In this document: positions 5,201 to 62,900 of the stretch, in pieces
How positions within the stretch are numbered: position 1 is the stretch's first letter
Layout: each line of letters opens with the position of its first letter
DNA from: Haliotis cracherodii
Taxonomy: Eukaryota
Assembly: GCF_022045235.1 (NCBI RefSeq)
Contig: NW_027266275.1
Coordinates: 54,374,001 to 54,438,000, forward strand
Length of the DNA stretch: 64,000 nt
Direction of reading: 5' to 3'
Program-made: the position numbers and the translations under genes
Notes under the pieces: generated by a model
Database searches by the model: none
What the model saw: the letters and a program-made list of their open reading frames with translations, nothing else
Told to the model about the DNA's origin: nothing

Positions 5201-8200
5201 ATGACTTGAGTATCATGATATGCACTGATTCATGGTGTAAGGGTAGGATCACACTACTCTCCTGTAGTTTTCCTCTGTGAGTCACAACCTACCTGCCTTC
5301 TTCTCTGTCACCATGAGTGAGTGAGTGAGTTGGGTTTAATGCCGCTTTTAACAGTATTCCAGTTATATGTGGAAGAAAAGCCCGAGGTGATGCAGGTCTC
5401 AGACATTTACGACTTCGGTGAAACCCACGAGCACAGGTATGGTGCTGACAAACCTAGAAACATAATCGGGATTTGAACCCACAATCATAGGGATGCAACT
5501 CTGCACAGCGAATCGCGGCGCCTTAGATGACTGGGCCACCCGTGCCCCCTCTGTCGACATGAGAGTCAGTAGACTGTGATAGCAGGACTTATTCTGTTGG
5601 AAGAACAACATACCTGTCTTCTTCTCTGTTGCCATGAGAGCCAGTAGACTGTTATAGCAGGACTTATTCTGTTGGAAGAACAGGCGCCTCTTGTCCATCA
5701 CCTGGGTGGCTGTCTCCCCCTTCCCGGTCACACCCTCAACCACACCCTTGGTGCAGCACTCAGACGAGGGATCCAGGTCTACCACAGACCGAGTTGCATC
5801 CCCGAAATCCAAACCTGCCATCAGTGTACTCATATTTTAAAAGTGAACTATACTTCAAGTCATCTGTGTTGATTTAGCATCATGCTCAGCAAAGATGTTT
5901 TGTATTTATTCTATAGTCATATGTATATGTTGTTGAAATGATTGTGTGCCTGAGTGTAAATAAAAGTTCAATTTAGGCAATAAGCTTTATCCTTCATTGG
6001 ACTGTTAGACTTTTACAAAATTCCTTTTTTTTCCTTAACTAAGCGTTGGGGTATTGGGGTGTTGGGTTTGTTGGTTTGTTGTTTAATGCCGCACTCAGCA
6101 ATATTCCAGCTATATGACGGCGGTCTGTAAATAATCGAGTCTGGACCAGACAATCCAGTGATTAATATCATGAGCATCGATCCATGCAATTGGGATCAAT
6201 GACATGCATCAACCAAGTCAGCGAGCCTGACCACCTGATCCTGTTGTCGCCTCTTACTTGGGGTGTTGGGATTTGGGGAGACAATCATTGGCAGTATTTG
6301 ATGTTCATAAACTACAGCGTTTGTTTGCTGATATAAATTGTATGATGCACAGTGGAATAACAGTTAATGACTACCCTCACATACAGACACATGCAGGCAC
6401 TGGGTACTGGTACTCATTGCAATGTCTGGACCTGAACTAAACATGGGCAACAGTCCTTGGATCATTGCCCCGTTTGAGGTTTTACTGATTATCAGATGAA
6501 ACTTTTGGTCCTTGTGACATGCACCTCAGAACAGATGCTCATATTACTTTCAACTTGAAACAATTCTGACCTTTGTGCAGCTTCAGCTGAACGAGTTCCA
6601 TGGCTGCACGGGCGTCCTCCACTGGACTGTGACCTGCCGACCCTGTCTGAATGTCCTGTCTGAACAATACAGGGTCCACACATCAGAAATATTTTACTAA
6701 ACAGATGTTCAAATCTGAATTTGTGCAGTTTCTTTCATAGATATCATTAATATATTCATGTAAACAAAATTTCACTTTATAGATGTTAAAATGCAATATC
6801 AACTAGATAAACAAGGGTATATGGTGGCCAAAGGTCATAGCAGGGCAAAATATAAAAATCAACGAAAAATCAGAATGTTATTCTGCCTACCATATACTTA
6901 TTCCTACTTTTTTATATGCATGTGATATATTCAATATGGCAGCCATGGGGGCCATGTTTGAAATCAGATCAGAATTCTGACATCATTATGTAATCCTCAG
7001 AGAAATATTATCCTTTGTTTCTCATAATTAATGATTTACTTGATAATAATAAAATATTTTTCAGAGAAAAGAATCAGAATTTGTTAATGAGTAGCCATCC
7101 TGTTTCATTCACAATATCATTTGAATAATTGCTGGTTGTGTTCTGTCATCAAACATTATTCAGCCTTACAAACCTTACATTCATCCATCAGCCATCACCC
7201 ATATACGATGCTATGCAGTGTGGTAGTGACATATGTCTGTTTTAAGTAAGCTAATGAAATGAGGCCGTTTATAGCTCATGGGCCTCAAATTAACCCTACT
7301 CCTTGCATAAACATGGAAGGATTCACACAATGTGTAGAGCAGACAGTGACAAGGCACGATGTACCAGTTGCACATGTTGTCAAGCGAGAAACATCAACGT
7401 TTGTTGGAGTGAGTGAATGAGTCAGTTGGGTTTAACGCCGCTTTTAACAGTATTCCAGTTATATCAGCTTAATGTAGGAGGAAAGCCCGGAGTGATGCAG
7501 GTCTCAGACGTTTACCACTTCGGTGAAACCCACGAGCATGGGTATGGTGCTGACAAACCCACAATCATGGGACGCAACTCTGCACAGTGAATCACGGTGC
7601 CTTAAACGACTGGGCTATCCGTGCCTCCCCCGATGTAATCAGAGCGCTCATTGGTCAGAGCAATCGCTGCAACCAGGCCATGGCTTAATTAAAAATTGCA
7701 ACTACACTGGAAAGTAATTGTATATATAAGACATATTGACGATGGGGACATATAAGTTAGCTACGCCATAAATCACAAAGAACAATGAAGAACAAAGCAT
7801 GGTTTATTTCACAATAAAACATTGTTCTATCATGCCGTCATTTCTGATGATTGGAACAAGCACTCACAACTTGATGACATCGTATATTGGACGTACATTT
7901 GAGAGGGGAGTGTCTAGTGAGTTGTTCCCCATAGATGTAGCTGGCCAATGCAGACAAACATGATGGCCGAACAATCGCATCCAAACGAGACATGACAATC
8001 TTCATTGGGAGAAAATGTACAGGATATCGACGTGAGGATTGTGAGAATATGCGGTAAATACCCACCTGCGCACGAAATTGACTTGTCCGACATTGCTGAG
8101 GTCGGATTGTATAGAGGGAGTCATCATTATTAAAATACAGGTTAAAATTTTTAAAGCTTGTACATTTCATCATCATCTTTAAAGAGGCTGTATGTAATGT

Positions 8201-11200
8201 TAATACCTCATATAAGAAATAAACGACTCATGGTTGCTGTTTATCATACAATTAAACACGGCAGAGAGAATAAATGACCCAGGGCTGAACCCCTCATGGT
8301 TTATTCTCCCTGCAGTGTTTTCTTCTTCAATAAACCACGACCATGAGTTGTTTATTTCTTAATGATGCAACATGGGTTGATGGTACTGAACATACTTGAG
8401 GAACTGAGCTGTGAGGGCCTTGAGCCCAGTCTTCTTCCACCTGATGCCAGACATGTTGTAGATGACGCTCGTGTCGATCACATAGGGGTGGAACAACTGT
8501 AACATGAACCATGGAGACTTGTGTCAGTGGCAGTCAGACAGACAGCAAATCAATAAATGTATGGAATGGTTTCATGAGTGAGTAAGTTGGGTTTAACGCC
8601 GCTTTTAACAGTATTCCAGTCATATCACGGCGTGTCAGCTTAATGTAGGAGGAAAGCCTGAGATGATGCAGGTCTGAGACGTTTACCACTTCGGTGAAAC
8701 CCATGAGCATGGGTATGGTGCTGACAAACCTAGAAACATATTCGGGGTGGACTGGGATTCATACCCACAATCATAGGTTTCTGCACAGCCAAATTGCGGC
8801 CCCTTAGACGACCGGGCCCCCCGTGCCCCCTCATGGACAGATTCAATAAGTGATAACCTCCTGTGGGTATGTTCATAAAGTTGATAAACATGGCAACAAG
8901 ACTTTCCTTACCTGAAGGTACTCTATGGGGATGATAATCTAATACATACAATAATAAATGGCTGGTCCCTAAAAACAAGCATGTGGATCTATTTTGCAAC
9001 AAATATGAGGTATGTGGATACTACCCTCACTCTGGAGTGAGTTTAGTTTAAGGTCACTTTGAACAGTGTTACAGTCAAATCACAGCATGTCAGCTTGTTG
9101 GGAGGAAAGTCTGAAGTGATACATGTCTTAGACGCTTACCACTTTGACAAAACCCCATGCACAGGTACCGCAATTACAGACCTAGAAACATAATTGTGGT
9201 GCTCTGGGATTTGAAGCCAAGATCATAGGTTTCTGGCATGCATAAGGGACCATTCATATATTATTGGGGGAGGTCAGAGGGAATATGGGGAGGGTCACCA
9301 AAAAATATGACTGTCTAATACACATATTTGGGGGAAAATGAACATTCTACGATAAAATATAAAGTGCTTTTGGGTCAGCGGAAAAAAAGGTACAAGGACA
9401 GCATGGACAGGGGGGGGGGGGGGGTCATCCGAAAATATGACAAGGATTAGTAGAGGGTTATTCTTTTCAGTACTTCAGTGCGTCAGAAAACTGACCCACC
9501 CCACACTGTAATAAATGGCCGTTCCCTAAGGGACTAACAGCCAATTGTGAGCCTCCACCTGGGCCAGTTGTGCTACCTGTTGTCATGGTGAGCTCTCCAG
9601 GGTAAGGCATACCTTGAGTGCAAGAAGATCCCCGTTGAGAGACTGACCCACCCAGATGGCGTCTGAGGGCAGGAGTCTCTTCAAGTGTTTTTGTACATCC
9701 TTCAGACGAGTCTTCACTGGAAGCAACATCGTCTTCGTGATGCCACTGTATCTGAACACACAGCACAGGAAGCTGTTACTATGTGACTGGCAATACATCA
9801 TTGAGATTTCATTTGTGATTCTTTCTTTCACACATGCAATTTCTTTCACCAACCTGTGTAATGGTTTATTCATGTGGCACCTATAACTATAAGACAGATC
9901 CTGGCTTCAGTTAGTTATCAAGTGTAACATTAATACCGTATTCGACGTAATAAGAGCCCCACTCTAATAAACGCCCATGGCGATATTTGCTAATATATTG
10001 GCTAGTGAACAATCCAAATTAGCACCCCTTCTGATTGATTAATGTACACAAGACTGTATAATACCTGTGTTATATGCATCCTTAATTATGGGAAATTAAA
10101 TTCTGGAAAAATATATCTGTCGTATATAAACATTTCAGGCTGTCAGCATAAACCACAAAATTTACAATCTTTCAACTCTGATGTTTTTCACCGAAATAAT
10201 ATTCTAATAAAAGCCCCCTATTTCTAATTTTGAGAGTGCCCTGGGTGCTTATTATGTCGAATACAGTACATGTTTTCCAGGACAGATAAAGAAATATCTC
10301 AAGTGTCCCTGGGAGATCAAACGGATAAACATTTTTAAAAAAAGCATCAGATTAATCAATTCTCCTACCAATGAACTTGTCAAATACCCTGGTGTGATTT
10401 GCTGAAACTGGCAAAACTATGTGGGCTGTTTTTCTTGTCAGATGCTTACTGTGTGAGGTAGTTTGTGATCCTGTTGTATGGTTTGACCAACGTGTCATAC
10501 ACAGTCTCTAACTTCTCGTTGACCACCGACACTCTCGTCAACTCATTCTCCTGGGCTGACGTGAGACACTGAAAGTCACAAGATACTATCTCATCTCTGC
10601 GCACAAATCTCTACTTGAGCCCAAGTGTTGGAATCAAAAGCTGGTCAAACAAACATACAAATTATTCTTCTTCTTTAAAACCAGAGATTATCAGTAAAAT
10701 TATGGTTTTGTTTGAAATAATAATCAATGAACCAAGAAAGAGACCTAAACTACAAAAATGTTTGCACACTGTATCTTAACCTCAGACCGGAACTGCTCAG
10801 TCTTACCATTTCACAATCTATAGCAAAGAGTGGACTTTTCTTTGACACAGATTTGTAACTGTTACAGCTGAACTTGAAATCCTTGTAGCGATCTGAAACT
10901 CCAAATGTGTGGAATATATTCTTTATTCAACCTCGTGGGGGAAAGTGAAATAACACCACAATGAAAAGATTTTCAGTTATACTATACTACTGCAATGGTC
11001 AGAATGTCTGCAAATGTGACTATACTACTGAGATACTTCTGCAATGGTCAGAATGTCTGCAAATGTGACTATACTACTGAGATACTACTGCAATGGTCAA
11101 AATGCCTGCAAATGTGACTATACTACTGAGATACTACTGCAAAGGTCAAAATGCCTGCAAATGTGACTATACTACTGAGATACTACTGCAATGGTCACAA

Positions 11201-14200
11201 TGTCTGTAGATATGACTATATTACTGACATACTACTGCAATGGTCAAAATGCCTGCAAATGTGACTATACTACTGAGATACTACTGCAAAGGTCAAAATG
11301 CCTGCAAATGTGACTATACTACTGAGATACTACTGCAAAGGTCAAAATGCCTGCTAATGTGACTATACTACTGAGATACTACTGCAAAGGTCAAAATGCC
11401 TGCAAATGTGACTATACTACTGAGATACGACTGCAAAGGTCAAAATGCCTGCAAATGTGACTATACTACTGAGATACGACTCCAATGGTCACAATTCCTA
11501 CAAATGTGACTATACTACTGAGATACGACTGCAATGGTCACAATTCCTACAAATGTGACTATACTACTGAGATACTACTGCAAAGGTCAAAATGCCTGCA
11601 AATGTGACTTTACTACTGAGATACGACTCCAATGGTCACAATTCCTACAAATGTGACTATACTACTGACATACTACTGCAATGGTCAAAATGCCTGCAAA
11701 TGTGACTATACTACTGAGATACTACTGCAAAGGTCAAAATGCCTGCAAATGTGACTATACTACTGAGATACTACTGCAAAGGTCAAAATGCCTGCTAATG
11801 TGACTATACTACTGAGATACTACTGCAAAGGTCAAAATGCCTGCAAATGTGACTATACTACTGAGATACGACTGCAAAGGTCAAAATGCCTGCAAATGTG
11901 ACTATACTACTGAGATACGACTCCAATGGTCACAATTCCTACAAATGTGACTATACTACTGAGATACGACTGCAATGGTCACAATTCCTACAAATGTGAC
12001 TATACTACTGAGATACTACTGCAAAGGTCAAAATGCCTGCAAATGTGACTTTACTACTGAGATACGACTCCAATGGTCACAATTCCTACAAATGTGACTA
12101 TACTACTGTCATTCTACTACAATGGACAACACGTAGGCTGCAGTCCCCCACCTTTCAGTGTGTCTACTGGCATGGGGTAGCCATCCTGCATCATCTGCAT
12201 GGGGTTGAGGAGCAGGTGGGTCCTGTCGAAGTCAGACGCCGGCGCTGGGATGCCTGCAACGGTGATGCCCAGAGACTGCTGTAGCCGCAACTGGGAATTG
12301 TGCACCTCATCAATCTGATTCTTCAATTTAATTCTTCCTTCCTGGTCACTCACTAAAGGTCAAGAGGAAACATTTACCAAATTCAAAATATTAAAAGGAA
12401 CTTCTTTTTTCGGCAAGAAATATAAAGTAATTATAAACTATAACCATATGTGGTAATCAACAGTAATTAATGAAAGAATCATGTTTGTATGATGTCATCG
12501 TCAGGCAAACAATGGGTGGGTAACTGGACATGCCATGATGCACAGGCAATGGGTGAGTGAGTGACTTTGGTTTAACGCCGCTTTTAACACCGCTTTTAAC
12601 AGTATTCCAGTTATATCAGGGCATGTCAGGTTAATGTGGGAGGAAAGCCCAAAGTGATGCAGGTCTCAGATGTTTACCACTTCGGTGAAACCCACGAGCA
12701 CGGGTATGGTGCTGACAAACTTAGAAACATAATTGGGGCGAACCACATGTAATGATGAGGCAGACCACCCATGCTGACCACATCAGTCTAGTTTTAGAGC
12801 TTGTGTTTTGTTTTTAATGTTAAACGCCACACGCAGCAAAAAACAGCCTGTAAATGTCTGAGTCTGGACAAGACAGACTAGTGGTTGATGTAATGAGTAA
12901 TGTCCCACGCAATCAGGGTACGAAGACACGCAATCAGCCAATCACACAACCTGACCACCAGATTCAGGAACCTTGTATGACAAGCATAGGCTAGAAGGGA
13001 CTTATTTTAACCCAGAATTCCAAAGGGGCGCATTTTAGTATGCTCTGATGACAAGGATGAGATACATGAGGCCTATTCAGCCCCACAGGCCTAAATCAGG
13101 ATATAAAAATAACACGATGTAAAGTACCACCAACTCACTGGCTTTAACCTTCATGGTGGCTTTGCTGACAGGCACGTGGAACACGTCCTCCATTACTGAG
13201 CCGCCATATTGATAAGGGGAGATCATCTCGGTAAACTGAGAAGCAGAATGCAAATCAAAGATGTAATTAAGCAGTTAATGTTTCTATGACTAGGCTACTA
13301 TTAACATAAAATCTAATAACTAATATTCCACTAAGAGTAAGGAAAAATGTACATCTTGAAGGTAAATGGTGTCAAAGGGTTGGTTGATTTGTTGTTTAAC
13401 GCTGCACTCAGCAATATTCCAGCTATATGACAGTGATCTGTAAATATACCAGTCTGGACCAGACAATCCAGTGATTGATATTATGAGCATTGATCCACGC
13501 AATTGGGATTGATGACATGCATCAACCAAGTCAGCGAGCATGACCCTCTGATCGCCTTTTACGACAAGCTTAGTCGCCTTTTACTGCAAGCATTGTTGAA
13601 GACCTATTCTACCCCGGATCTACCCCGGCCAAAGGGAGGTAACACGTGTTTCGTATGATTAACTTGTCCACAACAGAATCCAAAGGAACCCTGAAGTGAA
13701 TGAATGAATGAATGAATGAATGAATGAAAAGTATTCAGCAATATCAAAACGTGTCAACTTGATGTTGGAGGAAAGCCTGAAGTGATGCAGGTCTTAAACA
13801 TTTAAAACTCTGGTGAAACACGTACATGTATGGTGCTGACTACCTAGAAACATATTCAGGGTGAATCTAATCAGATCTATACTCCCAATCATAGGTTTCT
13901 GAAACACATAAGGGATGCAACTCTGCACAGTGAATTCCTCTGCATAAAACAACTGGCTCACCCATGCTACCCTAACGCATCCAGAAGTTCAGTGTCTTAT
14001 ATCTAAATTGTTAGTAGCTTGAAGAATAACATTAGTCCACAATGAGTGAGTGAGTTGGGTTAAACGCCGCTTTTAACAGTTTTCCAGTTATATTGCGGCT
14101 TGTCAGCTTTAATGTGGGGGGAAAGCCCAAAGTGATGCAGGTCTCAGACATTTACCACTTTGATGAAACCCACGAGAATGGGTATGGTGTTGACAAACCT

Positions 14201-16170
14201 AGAAACATAATCGGGGCGAACCATGATTCGAACCCACAATCATTGGTTTCTGGCGTGCTGCCCAAGGGATGCAACTCTGCACAGCGAATCGCGGCGCCTT
14301 TGACGACTGGGCTACCCATGCCCCCTAGTCCCCAATGATCAGGGATTAGATTTTGTTTGTTTGTTGTTTAACACCGCACTCAGCAATATTCAAGCTATAT
14401 GACGGTGGTCTGTCAATAATCGAGTCTGGACCAGACAATCCAGTGATTGATATCAGAAGCATTGATCCACGCAATTGGGACACACTGACCATGTCAGCAA
14501 GCCTGACCACCTGATCCCTTCAGCTGCATGGGTTGCTGGAGACATATTCTAAACCCGAATCTTCACAGGTCTTGGAGATAGGAAACTGAGTTCATGATAC
14601 AGATATTTCACATAATCTGACTGTTATAATAATATCATCGGGAACTAACTATACATCAAAATTCAGTTGAGAATCAGCTTTTTATAGCTGATACTATCAT
14701 GCTAATAACCAAACAAGGAAAGTATGTTCAAGCTCTACACATCCTTAAAATGTATAAATCCTCACTTTTATTCCAAAATATCAACACACATTTGAAAAAT
14801 TCCAAAGCCATAGTTTTCTTACTATATGAAATGTTTTCTTCATGAAGGGAAAGCAGTCTTGGTATTCTTCCAGATCACTGGAGCTAAGTTGGTCTATCAC
14901 TATGACAACCACTGAGGCCACCTTCCTGGGACGTGCCAACTTACACCATCTGTAGAAAACAAGCAATATTAATGGAAAGGATTCTTCACATGCTTCAGCA
15001 ACCCCATAATACTCTGCAATAGAAAAAGTGAAACATCCTGAGAATGTTTAACCAGTGAAGCCAAAGACAGCTGACCAGTCCTTGGTTTATCCTTTATATG
15101 CCGAACCCCAGGCAAGGAAACAACAAGTAACATATTTAAAAAAAATTGTATGATGGGGCAGGTGATCGAACCACCAACCTTCCGCTGTCCGAGCAGACAC
15201 TTTGTCCACTAGACCACAGTGGTAGTCAAATTGATGGGCACAAGCCAGACAAGACAATTCATTGATGTCAACAAATTCTATGCATTAACGCCGACATACC
15301 GCAACTAAGTGTTTGAAAATAAGCATGAAGATCAATGGGTTCTTGTCATAGCCAGAATGTTAATAATGACAGATTTAGGGGGTACCCTTCATTAAAATAC
15401 TAATAACAATACTTAAATGACCCCTTTACTTCTAAGTGTGGCTACTGTCTCAGATTTCTTCACCTTTATAAAGCAAAATAAGAACTAAATTGAATAGCAC
15501 ACCATAATTTGATACAAAGAGAGAATCCTTTTCTGCCCTTGTCTAATGTTGCATACCTTGGATAGTATTTGTACGAGTCAGGTAACAGAGCAAAGGTCAA
15601 TAAATGTTGCAAATCCAACATGAACAAGGGAGGTAACTCCTCATCTTCTTTACGGGGTACTTGTGTGTTTCCTTGTTGTTCGAGCAACTCCTTGAGTGTG
15701 AGATACAAAGCTGGCCGTTCCTGCAGGAGATAATAACATTTTAGAAAGCATTTAGAAGATGTGACATTTCTAATGCAATTCTCTACAATATGAAAGCAAT
15801 GCAAAAACTGGGAACCAGATCAAAATAGGTCTTGTTTATCAAAAAACTTGCGCAACCTACTTTATTAGGTTACAACATAATATGGGTGACTTCAATAGTT
15901 AACTAAACATCTGGCTTGACTGGAAAATTTCTTGTTACAATCAACTTTCAGCATGGATGTATAAAAATGGGAGACAGTAGCGTACCGCTGTATCTGTCTT
16001 GGCAGGTTTGCTCAATCTTCTTCTCTCTTTCACTCTCTGTTTCTTCAGTTGGTGCAACAGCACCTTCCTCGACACTGTTTTCCCTGTGGAATTTGAAGGA
16101 CAGCTACCATCTTGGACTTTCTTCAATTGTGAATCATCTGATATCCCCCCTTTAGTCAACTTTATCTGGA

Positions 16171-16219
<49 letters not shown>

Positions 16220-17608
16220 TTCCATTCACCAAACGGATGCTCATAGTGCTACACTATCATTACCCTGTCAGCATGGTCAGTGGATCAGTGCGCACTTGAT
16301 TTTTATTCTCAGCTCCCTGGGGTGTATACCTTTCTGGAAGAGCCATGCCTTCTGTAGCTAACCAGACTTAAACTGTTTTTGTATATCTAGGAGTGAATGT
16401 GTATGGTTTTACTAAAAGAAATACATATATTTCATTTATATTCTAACTTCTAAATATAGGCTATTGATATACACAAGCTACCCACACTGTGCACTTTTAA
16501 CCATCAGCAACAGCATGATTAGTCTCAATGCAACGTACCTACCTAACCTAGCTACTATTAATTAGTCTAGCAAATTGCCTGATAATCATCATGGTTATGG
16601 TACAAATATTAACATTAAAATCTCGATCAGAGCTACAGATAAGCAGCGTTTTTGAGTAAAATACCCCCCAGAAATATTCAAAACCCAATTGCTTTCAATT
16701 ATGAAACACTCAAATGTATAAACACAGTACGCGTAAATACCCAATAAAAGCTTTTTCACTACGCGTACAACGCAACTAATTTCTGAAACACAATTACAAG
16801 CTTATGTACCCTCTGAGTCAGGCCTATATTTATATACATCTTATATACATCTAACACATTATTTCATTTGTTTTAAATCTTAAAATGTTCCCTCATTTGG
16901 GGAAACACCCAATAGAGTGATGAATATATGTGTGAAAAAATATTGGTAACCCAATGAAAAATGTAATAGCCCGAGTGAAAACTCAAATGCTCAAAAAGTT
17001 ATCTGGAACTCTGTATCTACTGATATAGTGCCAAAGGACACTTTAGTCTAGTAAAGGTGTGTCCTGTATCACTGCCTGTGGTTTTCATAGACTGACATTT
17101 GCTATTCAATAATGGGCAACACACACTGATTGTCGTTATATCAAGTGTTCAGGTTGTTTTACTGATCATTTCACTGTCCTCCTTTCAAACATGTCCTTAT
17201 TCTATAATCATTCTTCTAACATGACTGAAAGGAGTGCTGAGCCCTTAGGTAAGTGAGTATTGTTTTAAGTCGCTTTTAGCAGTAATTCAGTAGTATCACC
17301 ATGATTACATTTACAGTTGGACATACAAGAAATAAGGGGGCCGAAGTTGTTAATCATATCTAGTCAGTATTATAACTAAAATCATATCGTGTATATTAAC
17401 GTACACTTAATATAAATTCGAAGGAAATGATTACTGACAAATCATGGTAAACTTGTTAACTATGTTTAAAACTTTATACCCGTTTGCGTTGCACATCTGT
17501 CTGGCTGAGTAAATCAATCAGAACTTCGGCTTTACGTTTCTTGTTCGCCAGTCTTTTGTCACGCTTACTCATTCTGACAAAGTCAGATATAACCTTTGAG
17601 TTTTCCAT
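2300..17608 (-). CDS. REXO5: RNA exonuclease 5-like (REXO5/NEF-sp/Rex1 family DEDDh 3'-5' exonuclease), 14 coding exons, ~696 aa
   Basis: Exons (-): 17480-17608, 15986-16165, 15557-15720, 14823-14949, 13139-13235, 12152-12352, 10807-10892, 10450-10568, 9613-9751, 8396-8496, 6571-6659, 5614-5814, 3487-3803, 2300-2440. All introns are GT-AG, phases match, total 2091 nt. Motifs: SPLFAIDCEMC, ELTRVSVV, LVKPYNRITNYLTQYSGIT, VGQSLNGDLLAL, HPYVIDTS, GHSPVEDA. The N-terminal PRWCKL segment fits REXO5 rather than REXO1/4. An alternative in-frame ATG lies at 17572. AATAAA (-) at 1935-1940. Confidence 0.9.
7795..8050 (+). repeat. Interspersed repeat also present at ~48475-48710
   Basis: Shared tttatttcac.ataaaaca.tgttctat...gtgagttgttcccca.agatgtagctgg; family not identified. 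Confidence 0.75.
9246..9526. mobile_element. Possible PIF/Harbinger-type MITE
   Basis: TAA|gggaccattcatatattat ... gtaataaatggccgttccc|TAA; the TIRs are imperfect. Confidence 0.4.
9936..10266. mobile_element. TA-flanked MITE family E (Tc1/mariner-pogo type)
   Basis: TA|ccgtattcgacgtaataag ... cttattatgtcgaatacag|TA; homologous copy at 30426-30797. Confidence 0.85.
10981..12120. repeat. 49-bp minisatellite (~23 copies) filling REXO5 intron 6
   Basis: Unit actatactactgagatactactgcaaaggtcaaaatgcctgcaaatgtg. The period of 49 was read directly (11018 vs 11067). Confidence 0.97.
14043..14326 (-). mobile_element. SINE family A copy
   Basis: Full-length match to family A, with a TSD-like tagtcc(a/c)caatga on both sides. 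Confidence 0.9.
16171..16218. repeat. (AAT)n microsatellite abutting the REXO5 exon 2 acceptor
   Basis: About 16 perfect AAT units. Confidence 0.95.
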
Positions 17609-18063
17609 AATTCACAAAAAGGGTATAGTCGCTTCATGAAATTACTGTAGAATATCTAAAGCTAGTCACTGCACGAAGATCCATGTGTATGTGTTGATAT
17701 CGCTGGGCGCTGACATCTTGGATCCTAAAAAGTGGTATTTTGACGAATATTTAGATTCTCTTTTTCCTTTACCAACTGTTCACCTTGTGTTGGCTCTGTT
17801 AACATGCTTACGTTGCAATATGATGTGTTTTAATATTATGCATAGAATATATTACACTCGCACGATGAGAAAATTGTAAGTAAAAAGATGTTCATATTTC
17901 GTATCATGTCTTATGTTTTTGATAAAATCAAAGTCTCGCTGGGTGCGAGAATTCAGCAATGGCGGCTAATTTGAGTCCACACTTGGACTGCGAAACCATT
18001 GATATTTGTATTTTCAGTACTTATAGTTGTCTAAACGCTCATGAATGACTTGCGTACACAGAG
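17609..18063. promoter_or_regulatory. Putative bidirectional promoter shared by REXO5 and ERI2
   Basis: Only 455 bp separate the divergent start codons. YY1-like motifs occur on each strand (caatggcggct + at ~17957-17967; caagatgtcagcg - at 17708-17720). No recognisable repeats in the interval. Confidence 0.65.
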
Positions 18064-21000
18064 ATGAAAACAACTAAAGAGCTTGCACGGTAATGGTCTC
18101 TGCAGTCATTACAATATACAAACTCTTGATATATACTTATATGTAAACATAAAATTATCATCAACAGTTCGGGGATGACCGGAGTCTGCAGAGACGACCT
18201 GCTGTCTGTCAGGGATTGGCATAAGTTCAGTGCGTGCATAATGACTGCCACGCAATTCTCAAATATGCATGCAACATTTACAAATTCTTTCTCACCCAAC
18301 AACGACACATTCATGATTCAATAACTAAGGGTTGCATGTTTACATTTTCACACCGTCTCCTCATCATCGTAATCAGTGCCAATACATTTTTAGTTAACTT
18401 GCCCAAAATTGTCACTTAGCCTTATTCTCATTTAAATTGAGTCTTATCTGTGGATTTATAAGCTGATCTTAATAGACCAACAGAGTTTTCTTAAACTCAG
18501 CCTTGGTCCAAATCGCAGACTGTCATCGCAGGTAGGGCTGAGATGAGTCCAAATTTATTACCCGGGTACCCACAACCCTTTTACCTGACCCTTCCCAGGT
18601 ACCTGCTGTAGGTCTCAAGAGTGAGTGAGTATGTTTTTACGCCGCTTTTAGCAATATTCCAGCAATATCACGGCAGGGGACACCAGAAATGGGCTTCACA
18701 CAATGTACCCATGTCGGGAATCGAACCCGGGTCTTCGGCATGACGAGTGAACGCTTTAGCCACTTGGCTACCCGACCGCCCCTTAGGTCTCAAGAGATAG
18801 GTACAATATGGCCGATTGGGAAACGTTTGACCTTACTCCTGTCAAAATGTAATCAGATACTCATAAACCATTTGTAAACCGATCTGGTCATGCATTTACT
18901 GAAGTTGACTGAAGTTTTATCTTAATGTCAAGTCAGAAGGAATGTGGGCATTATCAGAAAGAAATGTGAACATTTGTTGCTTAATACAGTGTTACCAAAG
19001 AGTTCTAGATAAGTTTTGCCAATAAACAATATAATGATGTGACCAACCACGGGTCCGGGTAGCCCTGCTCAGTACCCACCTGACCCGAGTACCTGACCCA
19101 TCCAAGCCCTAATTGCTGGACATTGTAGTTGTCATTTGTAAAGCATCTGTGTCTCAATATTCTCAGAATGTCAGTTGACAGTCAAAAAGTCTGCTTTCAT
19201 TTCACTGACTGTAAAGATAGTGTCAGATCACCTGTTTTCATGGGAATCCAGTTTATGGTATTTCGGTACATATACTCTATCACTTGCTAGGCATTATCAC
19301 TATTGCAAAAGTAAATGTTAATAGTTTATTGTGCATTATGACATTTATAAAATCTTTAAATAATCAAACTATTAAATATACCATATTTACCATATTAAGG
19401 GCTTTTCTCTTTCCTATAAGCACCCCCTCAACAACTTCTAGACCAATCTGAAAGTAATCTTTTTAAGCACCCCATATTAGAAGGCATATTGCAATGACAG
19501 TTCATATTAATTATAAGAAATTGCGTCACTGAAGGTACGTAATTGTGAAGTGACTATTATCATAAATCAAATAACATTTTATCGTTTAAACGATGTTTGT
19601 TCACTACCGAACGATCTATGAAAACAAGTCTAAATTGTGTATGGCTTACCCATGTCCCAGGGGTGCTTATTATGGACCATCTTTCCTTTGCAGTGAACTG
19701 GGACTCCTGAGAAAACGCTATATGCCAAAAGTACAAAATGGAAAAGAAGCCCTAATGAAAAAGCCCAAGTTGTGCACAGGTGATGTGATTTAAGATATGA
19801 TAAGCTGAAGTTATAACTTAACTGTTTCATTGTTTGCTCTCATTTTATGACTAAAACTTTAATCATTCACAATTGTATTTGCATTTAAGAAGAAGTTAGA
19901 TAAACTGTAAACATGAGAGAAAAATAAGTAAGATTGGCAGGTGATATATTCAAAGGTTTTATTCTTTCAGGTCAGGTTTTTACATATCTTGTGGTATTGG
20001 ATTTTGAATCAACATGTTGGCAAGATGGAAAATTTCGCACCCAAGAAATCAGTAAGATTTTCAGATTCCTTTTATCAATATCATGAGTGAGTGAGTTTGG
20101 TTTCACGCCGCTTTTAGCAATATTCCAGCAATATCACAGCGGGGGACACCAGAAATGGGTTTCATACATTGTACCCATGAAGGGAACCAACCCTGAGTCC
20201 TCGGCATGACAAGCGAATGCTTAAACCACGAGGATACCCCACCGCCCCTCAGTTCCATGATGATCATACCATTCACACTGACGCACCGTGATGTTTTCAC
20301 TTGTTCTGTAATAATTCACATGTAGTTAATGTCCTAAGGCTTAAAAAAAAATTAAGTGGATCCAATTACCTATCTGGCCTTTAAATAATTCTTTCAGTGG
20401 TACTGTTTTGTGACAAAACAAATGCCACAAATGAAATATATTCCAAACCCTGCTTACTTTAAGCATTTTTTCCAAAACAGTTGCAGATTCATTGAATAAG
20501 AAGAAGTCTATCTTCCGATCCCTTTTTAAATTAAGTGTAATGAAAACTACAACATTATTTTTAATTGTTCTTATCAATACTATAATGCAATAATCATGAT
20601 AATATAGCTGCATACTATGTGATGGCTGGAATAACTTAACATGGATAGCTTGATGAAAAGCCAGTTAAATGGAAAAAGAATTGGGACAATGTTGACACCT
20701 ACTGTTACTTGAAATATGGTGGCACATGGTCATGTGTACAGTGTACAGGTAACAAATCAGGTAACGTTTAAAAAACGTTGGTCGTGGAGAGTTGATGGAT
20801 GGATGACTACTTTCGGCAGTGTGAGTTTCTAGGGCTTTAGTCCTGCCCCACACTGAAGCACATGTCATGTGATTTCTCCTAAGGCAAGTGCCTTTGTTTG
20901 AAATATGCCTCTGTTCACCCAGCAGTGTATGGGTACCAGGTAGGATGATATGGTGACCTTCTGGTTGTCAGTTGGTAATTGATTAGATTTCGCTGTTGTT

Positions 21001-24000
21001 GATCAATTTTGAGTGTTTTTTTTCCAAAATCAATGTTGACCTATCATAAATGAGTTTAAGTTGAGCAATAAAAACCCATTTGATTTTGATTATGAACAAT
21101 ATTGGACGATATTATGCATACATTTGTTTGTATTCTTCCAGTTGAGTTTCCAGCAGTGCTGTGTAACACGAGGACGGGGCAGATAGAGAGTGAGTTTCAC
21201 CACTATGTTCAGCCTCAAGAACAGCCAGTGCTCAGTGACTTCTGTAAACAGCTCACTGGAATTGCGCAGGTAGGTGGGAATTAGCCTTGTCACATTCTTG
21301 TAGTTTCTGAAGTGGAATAGGTCACAGATACCTAGTGTTTACAAGAAATTGTCAGAAGTGAATGAAAACTTACTGATGTTTTCGTTTTTAAAGTGATCAG
21401 CAGAGAGACCTTAATTTTCTGAGAATATGACCGCTTGGCATCAGATGATGTTTGATGGTTAAAAGTCATGTCTTTGATTTCCCACATGGGTACAGTGAAA
21501 CCCATCCTTTGGGATGACGTCATCATTTGACCAGAATATTGTTAAAAGCTGTGTAACTGCTTGCTGAAAGTAATGCTCAAACAAGTTCCTTACTGTTAGA
21601 GTAGTTACAGCTAAAGTGTGGGGTGAGTGAGTGAGTTGGGTTAAATGCTGCTTTAAACAGTATTCCAGTTATATCACGGCGTGTCAGCTTAATGTAAGAG
21701 GAAAGCCCGAAGTGATGCAGGTCTCAGACGTTTACCACTTCAGTGAAACCCATGAGCATGGGTATGGTGCTGACAAACCTAGAAACATAATTGGGTCGAA
21801 CCAGGATTTGAACCCACAATCATAGGTTTCTGGCATGCTCAAGGGACGCAACACTTCACAGCGAATCATGCCTCTATTGTGAATTAAGTAGTTGCTTGTT
21901 TACAGTGCTACTTATTTACAGCTAAAAGTGTGATACAGATATTGAACATGCTAAAAAATATGACTTTGTATCAGTAATCACATTATACAAATAATTACTC
22001 TTGATGAGGTCAATATGCAGAAATGATCTGAGGACCCAACCTCTGGGATGATCTGATCAGACCAATGCAGGAGGCTGAGGTCCAGTCAGACCACCGAATG
22101 GATTGGGTCCAACAGTCCTTCTTTTCGCATATTGACCTCTCCAAAAGTGAACATTAGTTTTGTTATACCAAAATTCACTTTGAAGTTTATGAAGCATTTA
22201 AACCATCCTTTGTTTCATTACATTAATTTAGCTGTGAACCGTAAAAAAAAATGTTGGTATACCAGACGCTGTCTTGTTTTTCTCGTGATACAGATGAACC
22301 AATGGAATTTCAAAATTGTTAATGGAGGCATAACAAACATCAATCTCATTAAAATCAGATCTTAGTACTTGCTATCGCTAAACAAAGTTCTGATGACATC
22401 CCATTACGGGTCACGTCAGAATGACCTTTCATCCAACCAGTCAAATTTAGCTTACCAGATCATGAAAGTGTTTTCTAAACATGCAACTTCGAAAATGTTA
22501 ACACGGGTATTCCAAATGACAGTTACGGCCCATACGACTGATTCCATCAAAATTATCATCTAACTCTCGCTTCCGTGGTATAAATATTCTAACGGAGGAG
22601 GCGTTGCACAGTACATGGGAAGCACTGCCATACAATCGCAACCATATGTTAGACATTTCGGAATGTTCTATAGTTTTCAAAATTTTAATAGAGAACTGTG
22701 TCAACATATTTTTCGAGCGTAGTCTGAAATGGAAGTCATCAGGTTAAATGAGTGCCGTAAATCTAGAGAAAGCTGCTTTCTAATTGGCTGATGTCGACTT
22801 CTTGTTAGTCTTTTCAGTGGAAGTCGTTCTGACGTGACCCGTAATGGGATGTCCTCAGATCTTTGTTTAGCGGCAGCGAGAACTTAGATCTGATTTTAAT
22901 GAGATTGAATAAACATAAATGGGTCATGGCTGTGGTGTTTTATCATCGGCCTGTGTTTGCCAGGAGCAAGTGGAACAAGGGATCCCTCTGTTTCTGTGTC
23001 TACGGAAGTTCTGTCACTGGTTGAACAAGATTAAGCAGGAGAAGAATATTGTCTTCTCTGAAGGGGAAGAAGGGTCCAGAGCCACCTTTGTCACATGGTC
23101 AGGTTAGTACAGGTCTTGCTCCACACTTGAACACAGGTTATGAGGTATGAGACATATCCTTAGGCGAATCGTTTAGGTGATGTTCCAAATTTGCATCTGT
23201 TCACCCAGCGGCGAATGGATACCCGGTTGGTTGTTATGGTGACTTGAGAGCATACCTTCTGGCACTATGAGTTGTACACTGCCCAGGAGCTGAGCATGTG
23301 ATTTGAATGTTCGCTGGGATACTATATGATATTTATGTTGTAAGAGCCGACTAAAACTAAGAGAGATTGTATGGTCTCAATGCCTGCAGAATGTGAATAA
23401 TTATGAGGACTAGCGTATAAGCATGGGTATGAGCTGTTGGTGTGAATTGGCTCTCACACTATCGACCACTGGTTTATCTGATCCTGGCCTGATTTCAGGC
23501 TACCATGTTGTGGTTTCCATCAGTAGCATTGCTCACCTTTTCATTGAATCTTATTCCTGATTTAATTTTGACACATGTCATGTAACAGGTTTGTGAAATA
23601 GGCTACTCCTGAACTGAGATTTAGAAATCGACCACAATTTTCCCTGAACTTTGAACTGTCACGCTAAAGTTATGACATGGAGCCGTTGACATTCATTCTA
23701 CATTTTGAACATTGCGCCAGACTTTCCTGTAACATACACTGACAAGCTGTGATATGCTAGAAACTGAGCTAATTACATTTAGCTTTGTGTGGTTTTAAAA
23801 TGATGAAAGATAAAGAAGGATTGGATGGTAAATACATTTCTGAAGTTACGAATTTAAAGTTTTCTCTGTGATAAGCTTGAAAAGATATTCTACTGTGTAG
23901 AAGTATACTGGTATATGTTTTTTCAACTTTCAGATTGGGATCTTGGTGTGTGTCTACTGTATGAGGCTCGTCGGAAACAACTCTCCAGACCCCCAGAGAT

Positions 24001-27000
24001 GAACAGTTGGATTGATCTGAGGGCCACATACAGGGTAGGGGATCGGGTGTTCCTTAGCTGTGCCAGGATCCAATAATTGTTAGATTGAATCACACATTCA
24101 CCCTGATTATGATCTTTGGCTTCATGCCTGTGCATGTCTTAACAAGAACACAAACTATTATAAGAGGAATACAGTAGTGTCACAAACAAAAAGAAATTAT
24201 GTTTCTTTAACTGAAAAATATTCAGTTTTACATCTACATGAGACTATTAAGAGCTACCTCCTTTAAATCTCCAACACATTCCATAGCCATTAACTGAACC
24301 TATGAAATGGAGGACATGTTACAGTAGCATGGTTAGGCAAGGCATGTTAGGCTTGCCATGGTACAAGCGTATAGAAAAAGGCGTGTGAAATAACATTGTT
24401 ACAAGGTAATTATAGTCAGAATGCCACTGCAATAGTTAAAATGCTCCCTGTAGTCATCCCGCACCAGACAGTGCATTTTTTTTTTGTAAATGTGGAATGT
24501 GTTTATCAGGGGTCAGTACTTATTGCTTATGGTCGTAAAAGAGGGACTGTGCTCCATGTTCTGGTGCCCATTTCATGTCAAGGTCGAGGGTCGGGTGCTC
24601 ACTTCCTGTCAAGGTCCATGTTCTGGTGCCCATTTCCTGTCCAGGTCCTTGTTCTGGTGCCCACTTCCTGTCAAGGTCCATGTTCTGGTGCCCATTTCCT
24701 GTCCAGGTCCATGTTCTGATGCCCACTTCCAGTCAAGGTCTATTGTATGGTGCCCATTTCCAGTCAAGGTCTGTTGTATGGTGCCCACTTCCAGTCAAGG
24801 TCTATTGTATGGTGCCCTCTTCCAGTCAAGGTCTATTGTATAGTGCCCACTTCCTGTCAAGGTCTATTGTGTGGTGCCCACTTCCAGTCAAGGTCTTTTG
24901 TATGGTGCCCACTTCCAGGCAAGGTCTATTGTATAGTGCCCACTTCCTGTCAAGGTCTATTGTATGGTGCCCACTTCCAGTCAAGGTCTATTGTATGGTG
25001 CCCATTTCCAGTCAAGGTCTATTGTATGGTGCCCTCTTCCAGTCAGGGTCTATTGTATGGTGCCCACTTCCAGTCAAGGTCTATTGTATGGTGCCCATTT
25101 CCAGTCAAGGTCTATTGTATGGTGCCCTCTTCCAGTCAAGGTCTATTGTATGGTGCCCTCTTCCAGTCAAGGTTTATTGTATGGTGCCCATTTCCAGTCA
25201 AGGTCTATTGTATGGTGCCCACTTCCAGTCAAGGTCTATTGTATGGTGCCCTCTTCCAGTCAAGGTCTATTGTATAGTGCCCACTTCCAGGCAAGGTCTA
25301 TTGTATAGTGCCCACTTCCTGTCAAGGTCTGTTGTATGGTGCCCACTTCCAGTCAAGGTCTATTGTATGGTGCCCTCTTCCAGTCAAGGTCTATTGTATG
25401 GTGCCCTCTTCCAGTCAAGGTCCATGGTCTGGTACCCACTTCCTGTCTAGGTCCATGGTCTGGTGCTCACTTCCAGGCAAGGTCTATTGTATGGTGCCCA
25501 CTTCCAGTCAAGGTCCATGGTCTGGTGCCGACATCCCATCAAGGTCTATTGTATGGTGCCCACTTCCTGCCAAGGTCTATTGTATGGTGCCCACTTCCAG
25601 TCAAGGTCTATTGTATGGTGCCCACTTCCAGTCAGGGTCTATTGTATGGTGCCCTCTTCCAGTCAAGGTCTATTGTATGGTGCCCTCTTCCAGTCAAGGT
25701 CTATTGTATAGTGCCCACTTCCAGGCAAGGTCTATTGTATAGTGCCCACTTCCTGTCAAGGTCTGTTGTATGGTGCCCACTTCCAGTCAAGGTCTATTGT
25801 ATGGTGCCCTCTTCCAGTCAAGGTCTATTGTATGGTGCCCTCTTCCAGTCAAGGTCTATTGTATGGTGCCCACTTCCAGTCAAGGTCCATGGTCTGGTAC
25901 CCACTTCCAGGCAAGGTCTATTGTATGGTGCTCACTTCTAGTCAAGGTCCATGTTCTGGTGCCCACTTCCTGTCATAGTCTTGGGTATGGTGCCCTCTTC
26001 CAGGCAAGGTCTATTGTATGGTGCCCTCTTCCAGGCAAGGTCTATTGTATGGTGCACTCTTCCAGGCAAGGTCTATTGTATGGTGCCCTCTTCCAGGCAA
26101 GGTCTATTGTATGGTGCCCACTTCCAGTCAAGGTCTATTGTATGGTGCCCACTTCCAGTCAAGGTCCATGGTCTGGTACCCACTTCCAGGCAAGGTCTAT
26201 TGTATGGTGCACTCTTCAAGTAAAGGCGCTGCGATTCGCTGTCTATTGTATGGTGCCCACTTCCAGTCAAGGTCTATTGTATGGTGCCCACTTCCAGTCA
26301 AGGTCCATGGTCTGGTACCCACTTCCAGGCAAGGTCTATTGTATGGTGCCCACTTCCAGTCAAGGTCTATTGTATGGTGCTCACTTCCAGTCAAGGTCCA
26401 TGGGCTGGTACCCACTTCCAGGCAAGGTCTATTGTATGGTGCCCACTTCCAGGCAAGGTCTATTGTATGGTGCTCACTTCCTGTCAAGGTCTATTGTATG
26501 GTGCTCACTTCTAGTCAAGGTCCATGGTCTGGTACCCACTTCCTGTCTAGGTCCATGGTCTGGTGCTCACTTCCAGGCAAGGTCTATTGTATGGTGCCCA
26601 CTTCCAGTCAAGGTCCATGGTCTGGTGCCGACATCCCATCAAGGTCTATTGTATGGTGCCCACTTCCTGCCAAGGTCTATTGTATGGTGCCCACTTCCAG
26701 TCAAGGTCTATTGTATGGTGCCCACTTCCAGTCAGGGTCTATTGTATGGTGCCCTCTTCCAGTCAAGGTCTATTGTATGGTGCCCACTTCCAGTCAAGGT
26801 CCATGGTCTGGTACCCACTTCCTGTCAAGGTCCATGGTCTGGTGCTCACTTCCAGTCAAGGTCTAGGTGTTGTTAGATTGACACATTGTCTCATGTGTAA
26901 ACAGGTAGTCTTTGACTACTGGAGAGACATACATCAGAATATTTGAGATAACAGATGATACACTGTATTGGGGGTCAGAGTTGATGATATTGAGGGCCTT

Positions 27001-30000
27001 AAAAGCTGTTGTACCATGTTTAAGTGTGTGTTTCTTTGAAATCAAATAATGAAAGTGAATCATCAATAAATGATGATTTAAATGGTTTTCTATTTTTAGA
27101 AATTCTATGGGCGGAAGCCTCATGGTTTGAATGGAGCTTTGCAGGCTGTTGGTATTGAGTTTGAAGGACGTGAACATTCAGGTAAGCAATTGACACAGAT
27201 GAACATTTAATACCTCATCCTTGCTTGTATACCACCACTGGTGTCACTGCCATGTTGTTTTAATTTTAAGAGTTATGACCTCAGCGCTTTTGGACATTTC
27301 TTTTATTTTTAACTTTAAGTGTGGTGGCCTCTACTTTTAACTTAAAACTGATTGTTGAGATTAATTATGAATGATTCCTTACAATTCCCGAATGTGTAAA
27401 CTTTCTTTAGAGAGAAGCCATCTTACATCGCACAGACAACAATGTTTCTTGTGTGACATTTGCAACATGGGCCATTAGCTTGTGGTTGCCTGCTCTATAC
27501 AGTAATTTAGTGCCAATTTAGGCAATGGTACATCTCACACTAGACCCCCTCTGTGGTCTAGTGGTAGAGCATCAGCCCGGAGAGCGGAAGGTCCCGGGTT
27601 CAATCCCTGGCCGCGTCATACCAAAAGACATTAAAGGATGGTACTTGTTGTTACCCTGTCTGGCGCTCGGCATTAAGGGGCTAAAACAAGGACTGTCGGC
27701 TCGGAGTCAGTATACGGTGTCTGAGTGTTGTATTCATGTTAAACTGTGGCATGGTATCTCAGTGAGCTAGCACTATAAATCAGCATCAGTCCGGACTAGT
27801 ACAAGCAGCCACACACACACCCGTGCATGCACGTCGCTATATAAGTGCAATAATCTTGGATGCGACGTTAAACCCAATTTCACCTCACCTACATTTCACA
27901 CTAAGTTCAGCTGTGGAGTGCGGATTAAGTAAGGACAGAATTCCATTTGTGAACATGGTTAATACTAGCCTCATAGCTACCCATGGAGATTACGGGATTC
28001 CCTAGCAACCTGCTTGTCATAAGTGGCCACAAAACAGCTCGCTGACTTGGTTGATGCATGTCATTGTATCCGAGTTGCATAGGTCGATGCTCAGTTTGTC
28101 AATCACTAGATTTATTACATTGTTTGATAATTTGCTGATGTCAGATGATCATGTAGCTAGAATAATGCTTAGTTATTCAACAAGCAAACAAACACACTAA
28201 CATCATTTCAATTAGCTTACTAAAAATAGACATGTGTCACTACTTCACCGATCGAGGTTAAAATAAGTCTTCAGCAACCCATGCTTGTCGTAAGAGGTGA
28301 CTGATAGGATTGGGTGGTCTGGCTCGCTGACTTGAATGATGCATGTCATTGTATCCCAATTGCGTAGATTGATGCTCATGATGCAATCACTAGATTGTCA
28401 GATTTGATTATATACAGACCGCCGTCAAACAGCTGGAATATTGCAGAGTATGGCGTTAAACAACAAACATAACAAACAAACAAACAAACAAACACTACCA
28501 CATCGTACAGCGGTTTAATGTATTCAAGGGCAACGGAGAAATGCAATGTCATGTATTGATGATGCATTCCTCGTGAATGACAAAGCAATATTTACTCCCT
28601 CCCTCTAGACAAGTGGCTATTTCTGAAGTGTTACACAGGTAGACACATGATAGATAACTTGTATTCCAGGTGTGGATGATGCCCGCAACACAGCTCGTTT
28701 GGCATGGAGGATGATGAGAGATGGCTGTATCATGAACGTCACCAAGAACATCGGAATGGTACGCAGATAGACACTCATTACAGTCGATCAAAACAAGGGT
28801 CACTTGCAGTATGTTTTATATGTGTACTTGTAGATGTCTGTGATGATAATGTGGATTGTGTGTACTAATCTACTTGATTACGGGCATGAAAATGAGACAA
28901 ATTCATAACCAGTTTGTCCATGTTTTAATGTGATGTATTTACCTTTATTGTATTTTATGGTTGATTTTTTTGTACTGGATTTTAAATGATATTAAAACAA
29001 TCTGATTTGTGACAATAAGTGTCTGTTCTTTGTTATAAGGCAGCATCTGGTCAGGATGACCAACAGACTGTTGAGGGGGATGGAACAATAAAGCGAGGAC
29101 ACAGGTCACACATCTCTCCAACTATCACCGTGTCCACAGATCAAAGTTCTAAACGACCAAACTCTGTTCCTTTCAAGCAAAGTGGAACACTTCTTCAGAC
29201 AAAACTTCAAATAGTCAACCAGAGATCTGATGGAAAGGAGAAAACATTTGTGGTTCCAGTGAGTTTAAATACTCGTCAAAGCTCTGTGGGACTGAGTGTT
29301 CGAGATACCAATATTGGGAGTGATTTTAAACAGGAGGATAAAAAGTGTGTCAGAGATGTGAAGAGTGGCAGGACAACCTGTTCAATGTCAAGTCAAGGAA
29401 AGAAACTGGAGTCTGATCATTGTGTGGATACTAAAGTGTCCAGTGTAGTTACACCATGCATGAATCGTTCCAAGACGGCTTTGAGAAATAGCTACTCGAG
29501 AACTAAGAATCATTGTCCTGCTGTTCATGGAAGCTTCAAGCCACCGAATCAAAGTGCTGTGACTCCAGGACAGACGGGTCTAAGCTCCGCTTCCACATCT
29601 GAAGTTGTGTTGAGAAGTGTTTTCAAAACTCCAAATCAGAGGATGAACCACAGTGGTGAAAGCTTTAGTCGTGGAGTTATGGCACCATATCAAAATACTT
29701 CAAACACTGTTTTCAAAACACCAAGTCCTGGGCAAGGCAGGTTATCATTTCCTGGGTCCAACTGTTCAAGCAGCATGAAGGCTACCCCTCCGATGTGTAA
29801 ATGTGGTCGACGTTCAAAACGACGTTTGGTTCAGTCACCGGGCCCTAACATTGGTCGGTTCTTCTTCACATGTGGTGTGCGTACTTCTCAATATGATGCT
29901 AGGAGAGGATGCGAGTTCTTTCAGTGGGAAAGTTCATCTGCAGGGGGAGGTAACTCCAGACATGTCTCAAAGACAGGAAGTAGTTGTGGTGTGTCCAGAC

Positions 30001-57741: not shown

Positions 57742-58006
57742 CTGACTATGTGGTATCACCTAAATGCCTATCAAAGCGTTGTCCACAAGAAAAGAAATGG
57801 CATTGTGAGATTTACAATATAGGATGTGTATTCATTGATATAGATTCTTAAAAGAAAAGAAACGCATAACCAGATTTATGGTGTGGGACGTAACACATAT
57901 ATATACTGTACATCTGAACACTTGAATAGTGATGACATGTGGCAAACAGAACACATGTACAATAGGAAGATATTACAAGAATGGCAATGGTCAAGGTCAT
58001 GATAAC

Positions 58007-62796: not shown

Positions 62797-62900
62797 ATGG
62801 CCGCTCGCGGTGTAGAGCGTGTGCTAGCGAAATGTCAAGCATGTGTAGATGCTGGTAACTTTTATGAAGCCCATCAAATGTACAGGACTTTATATTTTAG
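62797..62900 (+). CDS. GET4: Golgi to ER traffic protein 4 homolog, first coding exon (gene continues beyond the window)
   Basis: [35 protein letters not shown] followed by the donor AG|gtcagt. G-x-[FY][13 protein letters not shown] is the GET4 N-terminal signature. Confidence 0.9.

Follow-up and report, generated by a model that had tools for sequence, protein, structure and literature searches.

Divergent REXO5 and ERI2 genes in the abalone Haliotis cracherodii: a head-to-head nuclease pair that likely predates the mollusc-vertebrate split

The window analyzed here is a stretch of 64,000 nucleotides from the abalone genome G000 (G000:C12:54374001-54438000), and its subject is a pair of genes, REXO5 on the minus strand and ERI2 on the plus strand, each encoding a DEDDh 3'-5' RNA exonuclease. 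The two genes are intact, spliced, divergent neighbors. A sequence-only reading had described start codons diverging from a 455-bp spacer and had guessed that the DNA came from a mollusc. Both statements were reproduced: in hand-built gene models, the REXO5 ATG at 17608 (-) and the ERI2 ATG at 18064 (+) are separated by 455 bp, and the source is the abalone Haliotis cracherodii. The pairing likely predates the split between molluscs and vertebrates. With a probability of about 60%, we read it as an ancestral bilaterian head-to-head pair in which both promoters lie within a single short open region, breaks are infrequent and come at a cost, and the directions are tuned separately. The pair is likely held by this shared promoter rather than by a shared job.

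The REXO5 coding span (2300..17608, minus strand) comprises 14 exons and 696 amino acids. Exons 1 to 7 lie at 17608-17480, 16165-15986, 15720-15557, 14949-14823, 13235-13139, 12352-12152, and 10892-10807, and exons 8 to 14 at 10568-10450, 9751-9613, 8496-8396, 6659-6571, 5814-5614, 3803-3487, and 2440-2300. Its frame is open, all 13 introns are of the GT-AG type, and the model equals a Haliotis cracherodii protein record (P0001) letter for letter. The ERI2 coding span (18064..30083, plus strand) comprises nine exons and 591 amino acids, with exons at 18064-18089, 19694-19779, 19971-20051, 21142-21269, 22964-23102, 23934-24034, 27100-27181, 28670-28758, and 29040-30083; its frame is likewise open and all 8 introns are GT-AG, giving 21 of 21 for both genes together. 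Each gene is single-copy in the genome as far as the scored candidates show. Long tandem arrays occupy parts of REXO5 intron 6 (11000-12120) and ERI2 intron 6 (24540-26870), and the intron that follows REXO5 exon 12 contains partial copies of that exon's 3' end (5290-5610), one of them interrupted by a repeat.

Transcript contigs were taken from seven runs guessed to be RNA, which either belong to one of four related organisms or carry the label of this species; runs X23 (no ERI2 coverage) and X10 (no coverage of ERI2 exon 1) were not used as evidence for ERI2. In both genes, splicing between exons 1 and 2 was confirmed by contigs whose loose ends lie at 17480 and 18089. REXO5 contigs ended at 17695, 17702, 17712, 17716, 17717, and 17718 in six of the seven runs (four studies), and ERI2 contigs started at 17945 (X2) and 17956 (X12), the two runs with the start displayed. 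As far as contigs extend, the 5' untranslated regions (UTRs) cover 17609..17718 on the minus strand for REXO5 and 17945..18063 on the plus strand (X2 and X12) for ERI2. Head-to-head genes are divergent with starts less than 1 kb apart; here the ATGs are 455 bp and the contig 5' ends about 230 bp apart. The latter distance is only a weak hint, because contigs show neither the true start nor the strand and were not set against a DNA-run control. In X10, from a related species, one contig extends across the REXO5 5' UTR as far as 17747 and continues from there into ERI2 exon 2, skipping exon 1. In that species, ERI2 may thus possess a first exon further upstream that overlaps the REXO5 leader, and the two starts may overlap. 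The window sequence has no GT at this position, and it offers no in-frame ATG for such an exon.

The minus-strand gene had been named REXO5, and grouping with REXO1 or REXO4 had been set beforehand as grounds for giving up the name; no such grouping was seen. In P0001, PF00929 spans residues 323-470 of 696 and the DEDDh region ends at 482, with D325, E327, D409, H458, and D463 as DEDDh residues and with the DCEM, DL, and IQ motifs present. Residues D409, H458, D463, I451, and Q452 are invariant in 78 sequences. A predicted model (mean pLDDT, 80.9) matched iPGM 5kgl (Z 14.8, rmsd 2.6, 171 aligned, model range 169..696), phosphopentomutase 3m7v (Z 13.9), and also sulfatases, the matches ranging from Z 12 to 14.8. 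According to this model, the nuclease domain lies inside a split alkaline-phosphatase (AlkP) fold. The fold emerged from a wide search; among the rows listed by Foldseek, the model matched DEDDh proteins only. The same architecture, a DEDDh domain inside a split AlkP fold, characterizes Rex1/Rexo5, whereas Rex3/REXO1 combines KIX and CHORD with a terminal DEDDh domain (Daniels et al. 2025, PMC12129344). Abalone REXO5 thus resembles the Rex1/Rexo5/Sdn5 clade in its central DEDDh domain within a discontinuous AlkP fold and in its DCEM, DL, and IQ motifs, and, on sequence, no difference from that clade was found.

As in fly Rexo5 and yeast Rex1, no RRM was detected in P0001 by Pfam, which found two in P0016; twin RRMs mark the vertebrate form of REXO5. 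Their absence from abalone REXO5 is expected, because the RRMs of REXO5 are vertebrate-only (PMC12129344). In a 22-row tree, the window protein fell with caecilian REXO5 and fly Rexo5 in a 19-row clade with support of 81/81, a modest value below the tool's starred level; the outgroups were one REXO1-like and one partial REXO4-like row, both on long branches. Identity over the DEDDh domain was 55-56% to caecilian REXO5 versus 41-42% to the genome's own REXO1-like exon. The candidate identity REXO1/Rex3 was rejected: P0001 has no EloA-BP1 domain (PF15870), its DEDDh domain is central and not terminal, and a separate REXO1-like gene, in which PF15870 and Cys/His exons accompany a terminal DEDDh domain, lies at G000:C34:24.28 Mb.

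The plus-strand gene is ERI2, as had been proposed, and not ERI1 or ERI3. P0288, a 591-amino-acid protein from the same genus with 95% identity in the last exon, matched human ERI2 (7N8V) at an E value of 1.5e-95, ERI1 at 4.6e-38, and ERI3 at 3.5e-28, and separate ERI1-like (C80) and ERI3-like (C34) loci exist in the genome. The only Pfam domains of P0288 are PF00929 and PF06839, with no SAP. In the window protein, the DEDDh residues are D48, E50, D156, H213, and D218, their roles assigned by motif spacing, and a GRF zinc finger (PF06839, E 1.4e-11) lies C-terminally in the last exon. The abalone gene is therefore like human ERI2 (PDB 7N8V) in its N-terminal ERI-type DEDDh domain and like vertebrate ERI2 records in its C-terminal GRF finger, and it differs from human ERI2 in a poorly conserved linker of about 250 residues. 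A metagenome scan with an ERI2 alignment kept 80 of 239 loci, none matching REXO5 by tblastn or profile; nearly all were short or intronless, so that the scan was uninformative. On one metagenome contig (L048:6597-12248), an intron-containing ERI2-like gene stands tail to tail with an Atthog/MOSMO gene, with no REXO5 in the 6.6 kb upstream (the ERI2 first exon was not placed). Separately, an unnamed 533-amino-acid protein (P0138) carries two tandem ERI-type nuclease domains.

Since both proteins belong to one Pfam family and share a fold, with the ERI1 domain reaching Z 13.1 against the REXO5 model, the pair could descend from a single DEDDh gene that was duplicated in tandem long ago. However, REXO5 and ERI2 show no detectable sequence similarity (best BLASTP E value, 0.83; profile-profile probability, 0.7%) and are therefore not recent duplicates. 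The REXO5 clade spans eukaryotes (PMC12129344), and closer paralogues of REXO5 lie elsewhere in the abalone genome. We consider such an origin very improbable.

A divergent REXO5-ERI2 pair is already catalogued in published tables, in vertebrates only. In Li et al. 2006 (PMC1487180), LOC81691/MGC16943 appears among the human head-to-head pairs, with 38 bp between the starts and 524 bp between the coding regions, and in another annotation the human starts overlap by about 30 nt (PMC4176359). Coordinate arithmetic on the supplement rows identified MGC16943 as ERI2. The human pair, ERI2 (MGC16943/EXOD1) and REXO5 (LOC81691/NEF-sp), thus consists of the same orthologues in the same divergent orientation, with an ATG spacing of 524 bp versus 455 bp in abalone. 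In mouse, LOC434234 is presumably Rexo5. The mouse pair is 205 bp apart (PMC1487180). Davila Lopez et al. 2010 (PMC2871058), whose survey of 64 genomes contains no spiralian, give the pair as divergent in eight vertebrates: human, mouse, chicken, Xenopus, and four fishes. Chicken is marked "Orthlogs" by Li et al. (PMC1487180), which we read as not counted linked, and is included in PMC2871058. Two further sources likewise give 16p12.3 and linkage in cattle (PMC9427692 and PMC6160104). The placement of divergent human ERI2 and REXO5 at 16p12.3, as stated in the sequence-only reading, was confirmed from rows in the supplements of PMC1487180, PMC2871058, and PMC4176359. No row for the pair was found in the supplements of PMC7817982. 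PMC6585903 pairs ERI2 with LYRM1 (12 of 15 supplement files searched), missing REXO5-ERI2 because the long upstream ERI2 isoform was used.

To place the abalone pair among spiralians, scaffold length and protein identifiers were compared in all 24 other species with both proteins named; each homologue search comprised the best 120 matches, and species counts refer to those among the matches listed. A scaffold of the same length holds both genes in 17 of 17 non-heterobranch spiralians. Identifiers are consecutive in seven of them, the annelid Owenia, the chiton Liolophura, Batillaria, Potamilus, Sinanodonta, Mizuhopecten, and Mytilus coruscus, and gaps of 2, 7, 10, and 13 were found in Littorina, Mactra, the brachiopod Lingula (269-kb scaffold), and Pecten, respectively. 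For two Haliotis species, Pomacea, and M. californianus, the comparison covered the shared scaffold. The proposed bilaterian age is supported by this neighborhood in vertebrates, molluscs, one annelid, and one brachiopod, the spiralians being judged by identifiers as a proxy. In human, DCUN1D3 adjoins REXO5 (PMC1487180). The abalone DCUN1D3 orthologue (G000:C12:76061721-76062062, L093; 4GBA, E 3.6e-69) is on the same chromosome, 21.7 Mb away, so that only the head-to-head link persisted.

Several observations weigh against an ancestral pair held together by a shared promoter. The genes are apart in seven of seven heterobranch gastropods among the matches listed: Biomphalaria pfeifferi, Bulinus, Physella, and three Elysia species have them on different scaffolds, and in B. 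glabrata (two assemblies) one chromosome carries both, with identifiers that differ by about 700. Although draft assemblies can separate neighbors, a split in all seven speaks for a real break. Identifiers are 46 apart in Ylistrum (1.3-Mb scaffold) and 2,188 apart in Gigantopelta, and in spiralians other than abalone they show neighborhood only, neither orientation nor spacer length. The survey of PMC2871058 includes zebrafish, Ciona, two nematodes, three dipterans, Daphnia, Nematostella, and Trichoplax, some of them with poor annotations, and gives the pair for none of these; together with the heterobranch split, this means that the lock is not absolute. The comparison holds no echinoderm, hemichordate, or amphioxus REXO5. 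The evidence for the starts consists of contigs from runs guessed to be RNA, and a short spacer persists for long even without selection.

Both proteins were compared in vertebrates and spiralians, which leaves echinoderms, hemichordates, and amphioxus, the lineages that would bridge the two, outside the comparison along with cephalopods, arthropods, and cnidarians. The same adjacency might then have arisen independently in vertebrates and spiralians, and PMC2871058 does not list the pair for Ciona and four arthropods. That the same two genes came together twice in the same orientation is improbable, however, and DCUN1D3 is on the shared chromosome in both lineages; we give an independent origin only a slight chance.

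Ancient head-to-head pairs of housekeeping genes are a well-known class, and REXO5-ERI2 is one of hundreds. Irimia et al. 2012 (PMC3514665) describe 595 unrelated groups of such neighbors, termed CAMPs, and 54.8% of the human CAMPs are 5'-5'. Like REXO5-ERI2, CAMPs are unrelated neighbors kept across phyla, 5'-5' and less than 1 kb apart (PMC3514665; also PMC13508932). With respect to their definition, the spread of REXO5-ERI2 was traced by the identifier proxy and not by the CAMP pipeline, and the two proteins have no pairwise similarity yet belong to one Pfam family. In the HSPD1-HSPE1 CAMP, expression of the two genes is strongly correlated (r 0.81) and their products make up one machine (PMC3514665); REXO5-ERI2 is not known to share either property. 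The spiralian neighborhood and the heterobranch split are new here; the CAMP table of PMC3514665 may already list the pair.

Such a pair could also have originated once by chance and survived passively in slowly rearranging genomes, the spacer being a small breakpoint target. The numbers of ancient pairs kept are 12 in nematodes, 46 in flies, 54 in Ciona, and 448-492 in Lottia and amphioxus (PMC3514665), and the listed losses of REXO5-ERI2 sit in the fast-rearranging lineages among these (nematodes, flies, and Ciona). Repeat-free stretches of spacer size are also common in this region. On the other hand, the spacer is still a few hundred bases long in a 1.18-Gb genome with repeat-filled introns, as it is in human and mouse, although insertions should accumulate in neutral DNA, and the spacer retains its CpGs. 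Passive retention is, in our judgment, unlikely.

The CpG observed/expected ratio was 1.01 in the ATG-to-ATG spacer, compared with 0.42 and 0.36 in the two gene bodies, where only 4 of 522 windows reached 1.0. Under invertebrate methylation, this pattern fits an unmethylated promoter between methylated housekeeping genes. The putative shared promoter core (17719..17944, no strand assigned) covers the approximately 226 bp between the contig 5' ends, within the stretch not depleted of CpG. The earlier description of a spacer free of repeats holds in that the region 17300-18300 matches one place in the genome, contig depth over the spacer is low, and its generic repeat score was below that of all 100 shuffles. 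It does not hold as a special feature, because 15 of 30 bins (about 400 bp each, 12150-24300) are equally low (X1 depth of <100), and a repeat-free spacer is ordinary here.

YY1-like motifs pointing both ways had also been noted, and were searched for with the YY1 consensus AANATGGCGG. There is one 10-mer per strand, each directed outward and each with two mismatches: at 17710..17719 (-), at the REXO5 contig 5' end, and at 17956..17965 (+), 11 nt inside the ERI2 contig 5' end. No match with a single mismatch was found in the spacer, and one motif per strand also occurred in 10.9% of 1,000 shuffles. Sole support for the motifs is their position at the contig 5' ends (chance of about 0.002, with the window chosen afterwards). 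Each 5' UTR contains three upstream ATGs, the first of which stems from the YY1-like motif and opens an in-frame upstream open reading frame that stops before the main one (16 codons for REXO5 and 29 for ERI2); that of ERI2 is shifted by indels in related species. An element, TCGCTGGGYGC (TCGCTGGG), occurs twice in the window, at 17700..17710 (+) near the REXO5 contig 5' end and at 17936..17946 (+) at that of ERI2. It was chosen after being seen, and a GC-rich 8-mer was repeated in 1.4% of shuffles. Patterns for CCAAT, DRE, E2F, E-box, NRF1, and ETS had no match in the spacer. The three commonest CHR hexamers, TTTGAA, TTTAAA, and TTCGAA, are absent from 17518-18145, where the rarer variant TTTGAG occurs twice (17595 and 17970; background, 0.29 per such stretch). 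Promoter activity in both directions from the spacer is plausible; the CpG ratio and the weak YY1-like motifs bear on it only indirectly.

The sequence-only reading had gone further and proposed co-regulation of two enzymes acting in one pathway; this part is poorly supported. The enzymes would have to trim RNAs that are identical or linked, be they rRNA, snoRNA, or histone mRNA 3' ends or R-loop RNA, in germ cells or in proliferating cells, with selection keeping their doses matched. That two members of one family (PF00929) should be adjacent for more than 500 million years is a striking coincidence otherwise, and in human, one DREAM-bound region with a CHR conserved at 0.933 is common to both genes (PMC4176359). 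Both were also decreased in one cell-line treatment (-1.32 and -1.25), within a long list (PMC4667504). Mouse Rexo5 is dispensable, the viable knockout being ascribed by its authors to an unknown backup nuclease (PMC5558908), and the fly mutant is lethal, fly Rexo5 being essential and trimming rRNA (review PMC13215694). Against co-regulation, human microarray correlations were negative and nonsignificant (-0.28, P = 0.11; -0.45, P = 0.053; PMC1487180). Despite the common CHR, a G2/M peak was reported for REXO5 only and none for ERI2, and the same study found the CHR to be one-sided in all head-to-head cases (PMC4176359). The human promoter has a TTTGAA CHR and DREAM binding, whereas the abalone spacer lacks the three common hexamers. 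Furthermore, mouse Rexo5 is testis-specific (PMC5558908), and the pair is split in the seven heterobranchs. Human REXO5 acts on R-loops through its RRMs (PMC11436357), which abalone REXO5 lacks. In our literature searches, no title or abstract discussed the two genes together or linked their functions, and no substrate for ERI2 was found. Selection for matched doses therefore appears unlikely to us, about as unlikely as passive retention. A narrower proposal, in which one proliferation-linked promoter drives both genes as an ancestral bilaterian unit for RNA 3' trimming and ERI2 is the nuclease covering for REXO5 in mammals, is more doubtful still.

Under the reading of an ancestral pair on a shared open region, two start sites about 230 bp apart would lie in one unmethylated region between two housekeeping genes with gene-body methylation. 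A break in the spacer would strip one gene of its promoter, so that few breaks would survive. Each direction would be tuned separately, and expression would therefore be only loosely coupled. REXO5 would trim the 3' ends of stable RNAs, as do fly Rexo5 and yeast Rex1, and the substrate of ERI2 is likely different.

Elsewhere in the window, a minus-strand trypsin-like serine protease gene (34100-39760) is convergent with ERI2 and has a retroelement-like fragment in one intron (37811-38780). A minus-strand WD40 gene (48800-58400) has only a weak Pfam match to a beta-propeller; it presumably resembles DPH7. The CpG observed/expected ratio is near 0.85 over 36000-57000, compared with 0.2 to 0.4 in neighboring housekeeping gene bodies. 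A second divergent pair (61568-62900) consists of a CDK2AP-family gene (-, Pfam match) and a first exon (+) that we take to be GET4-like, with a ratio of 0.97 between them and a YY1-like motif with one mismatch on the GET4-like start codon (62794). An Rrp7-like exon (PF17799; L088:4322-4600) lies about 28 kb past the REXO5 3' end and marks a ribosome-biogenesis gene nearby. Rfam gave no matches in the whole window.

With these findings, a pair that published tables give for vertebrates alone likely dates back to the bilaterian ancestor. If ERI2 does serve as a backup, this would provide the first ERI2 substrate and would account for a healthy mouse Rexo5 knockout alongside a lethal fly mutant. 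The clean loss of the pair in heterobranchs offers a natural experiment on the effect of a shared promoter.

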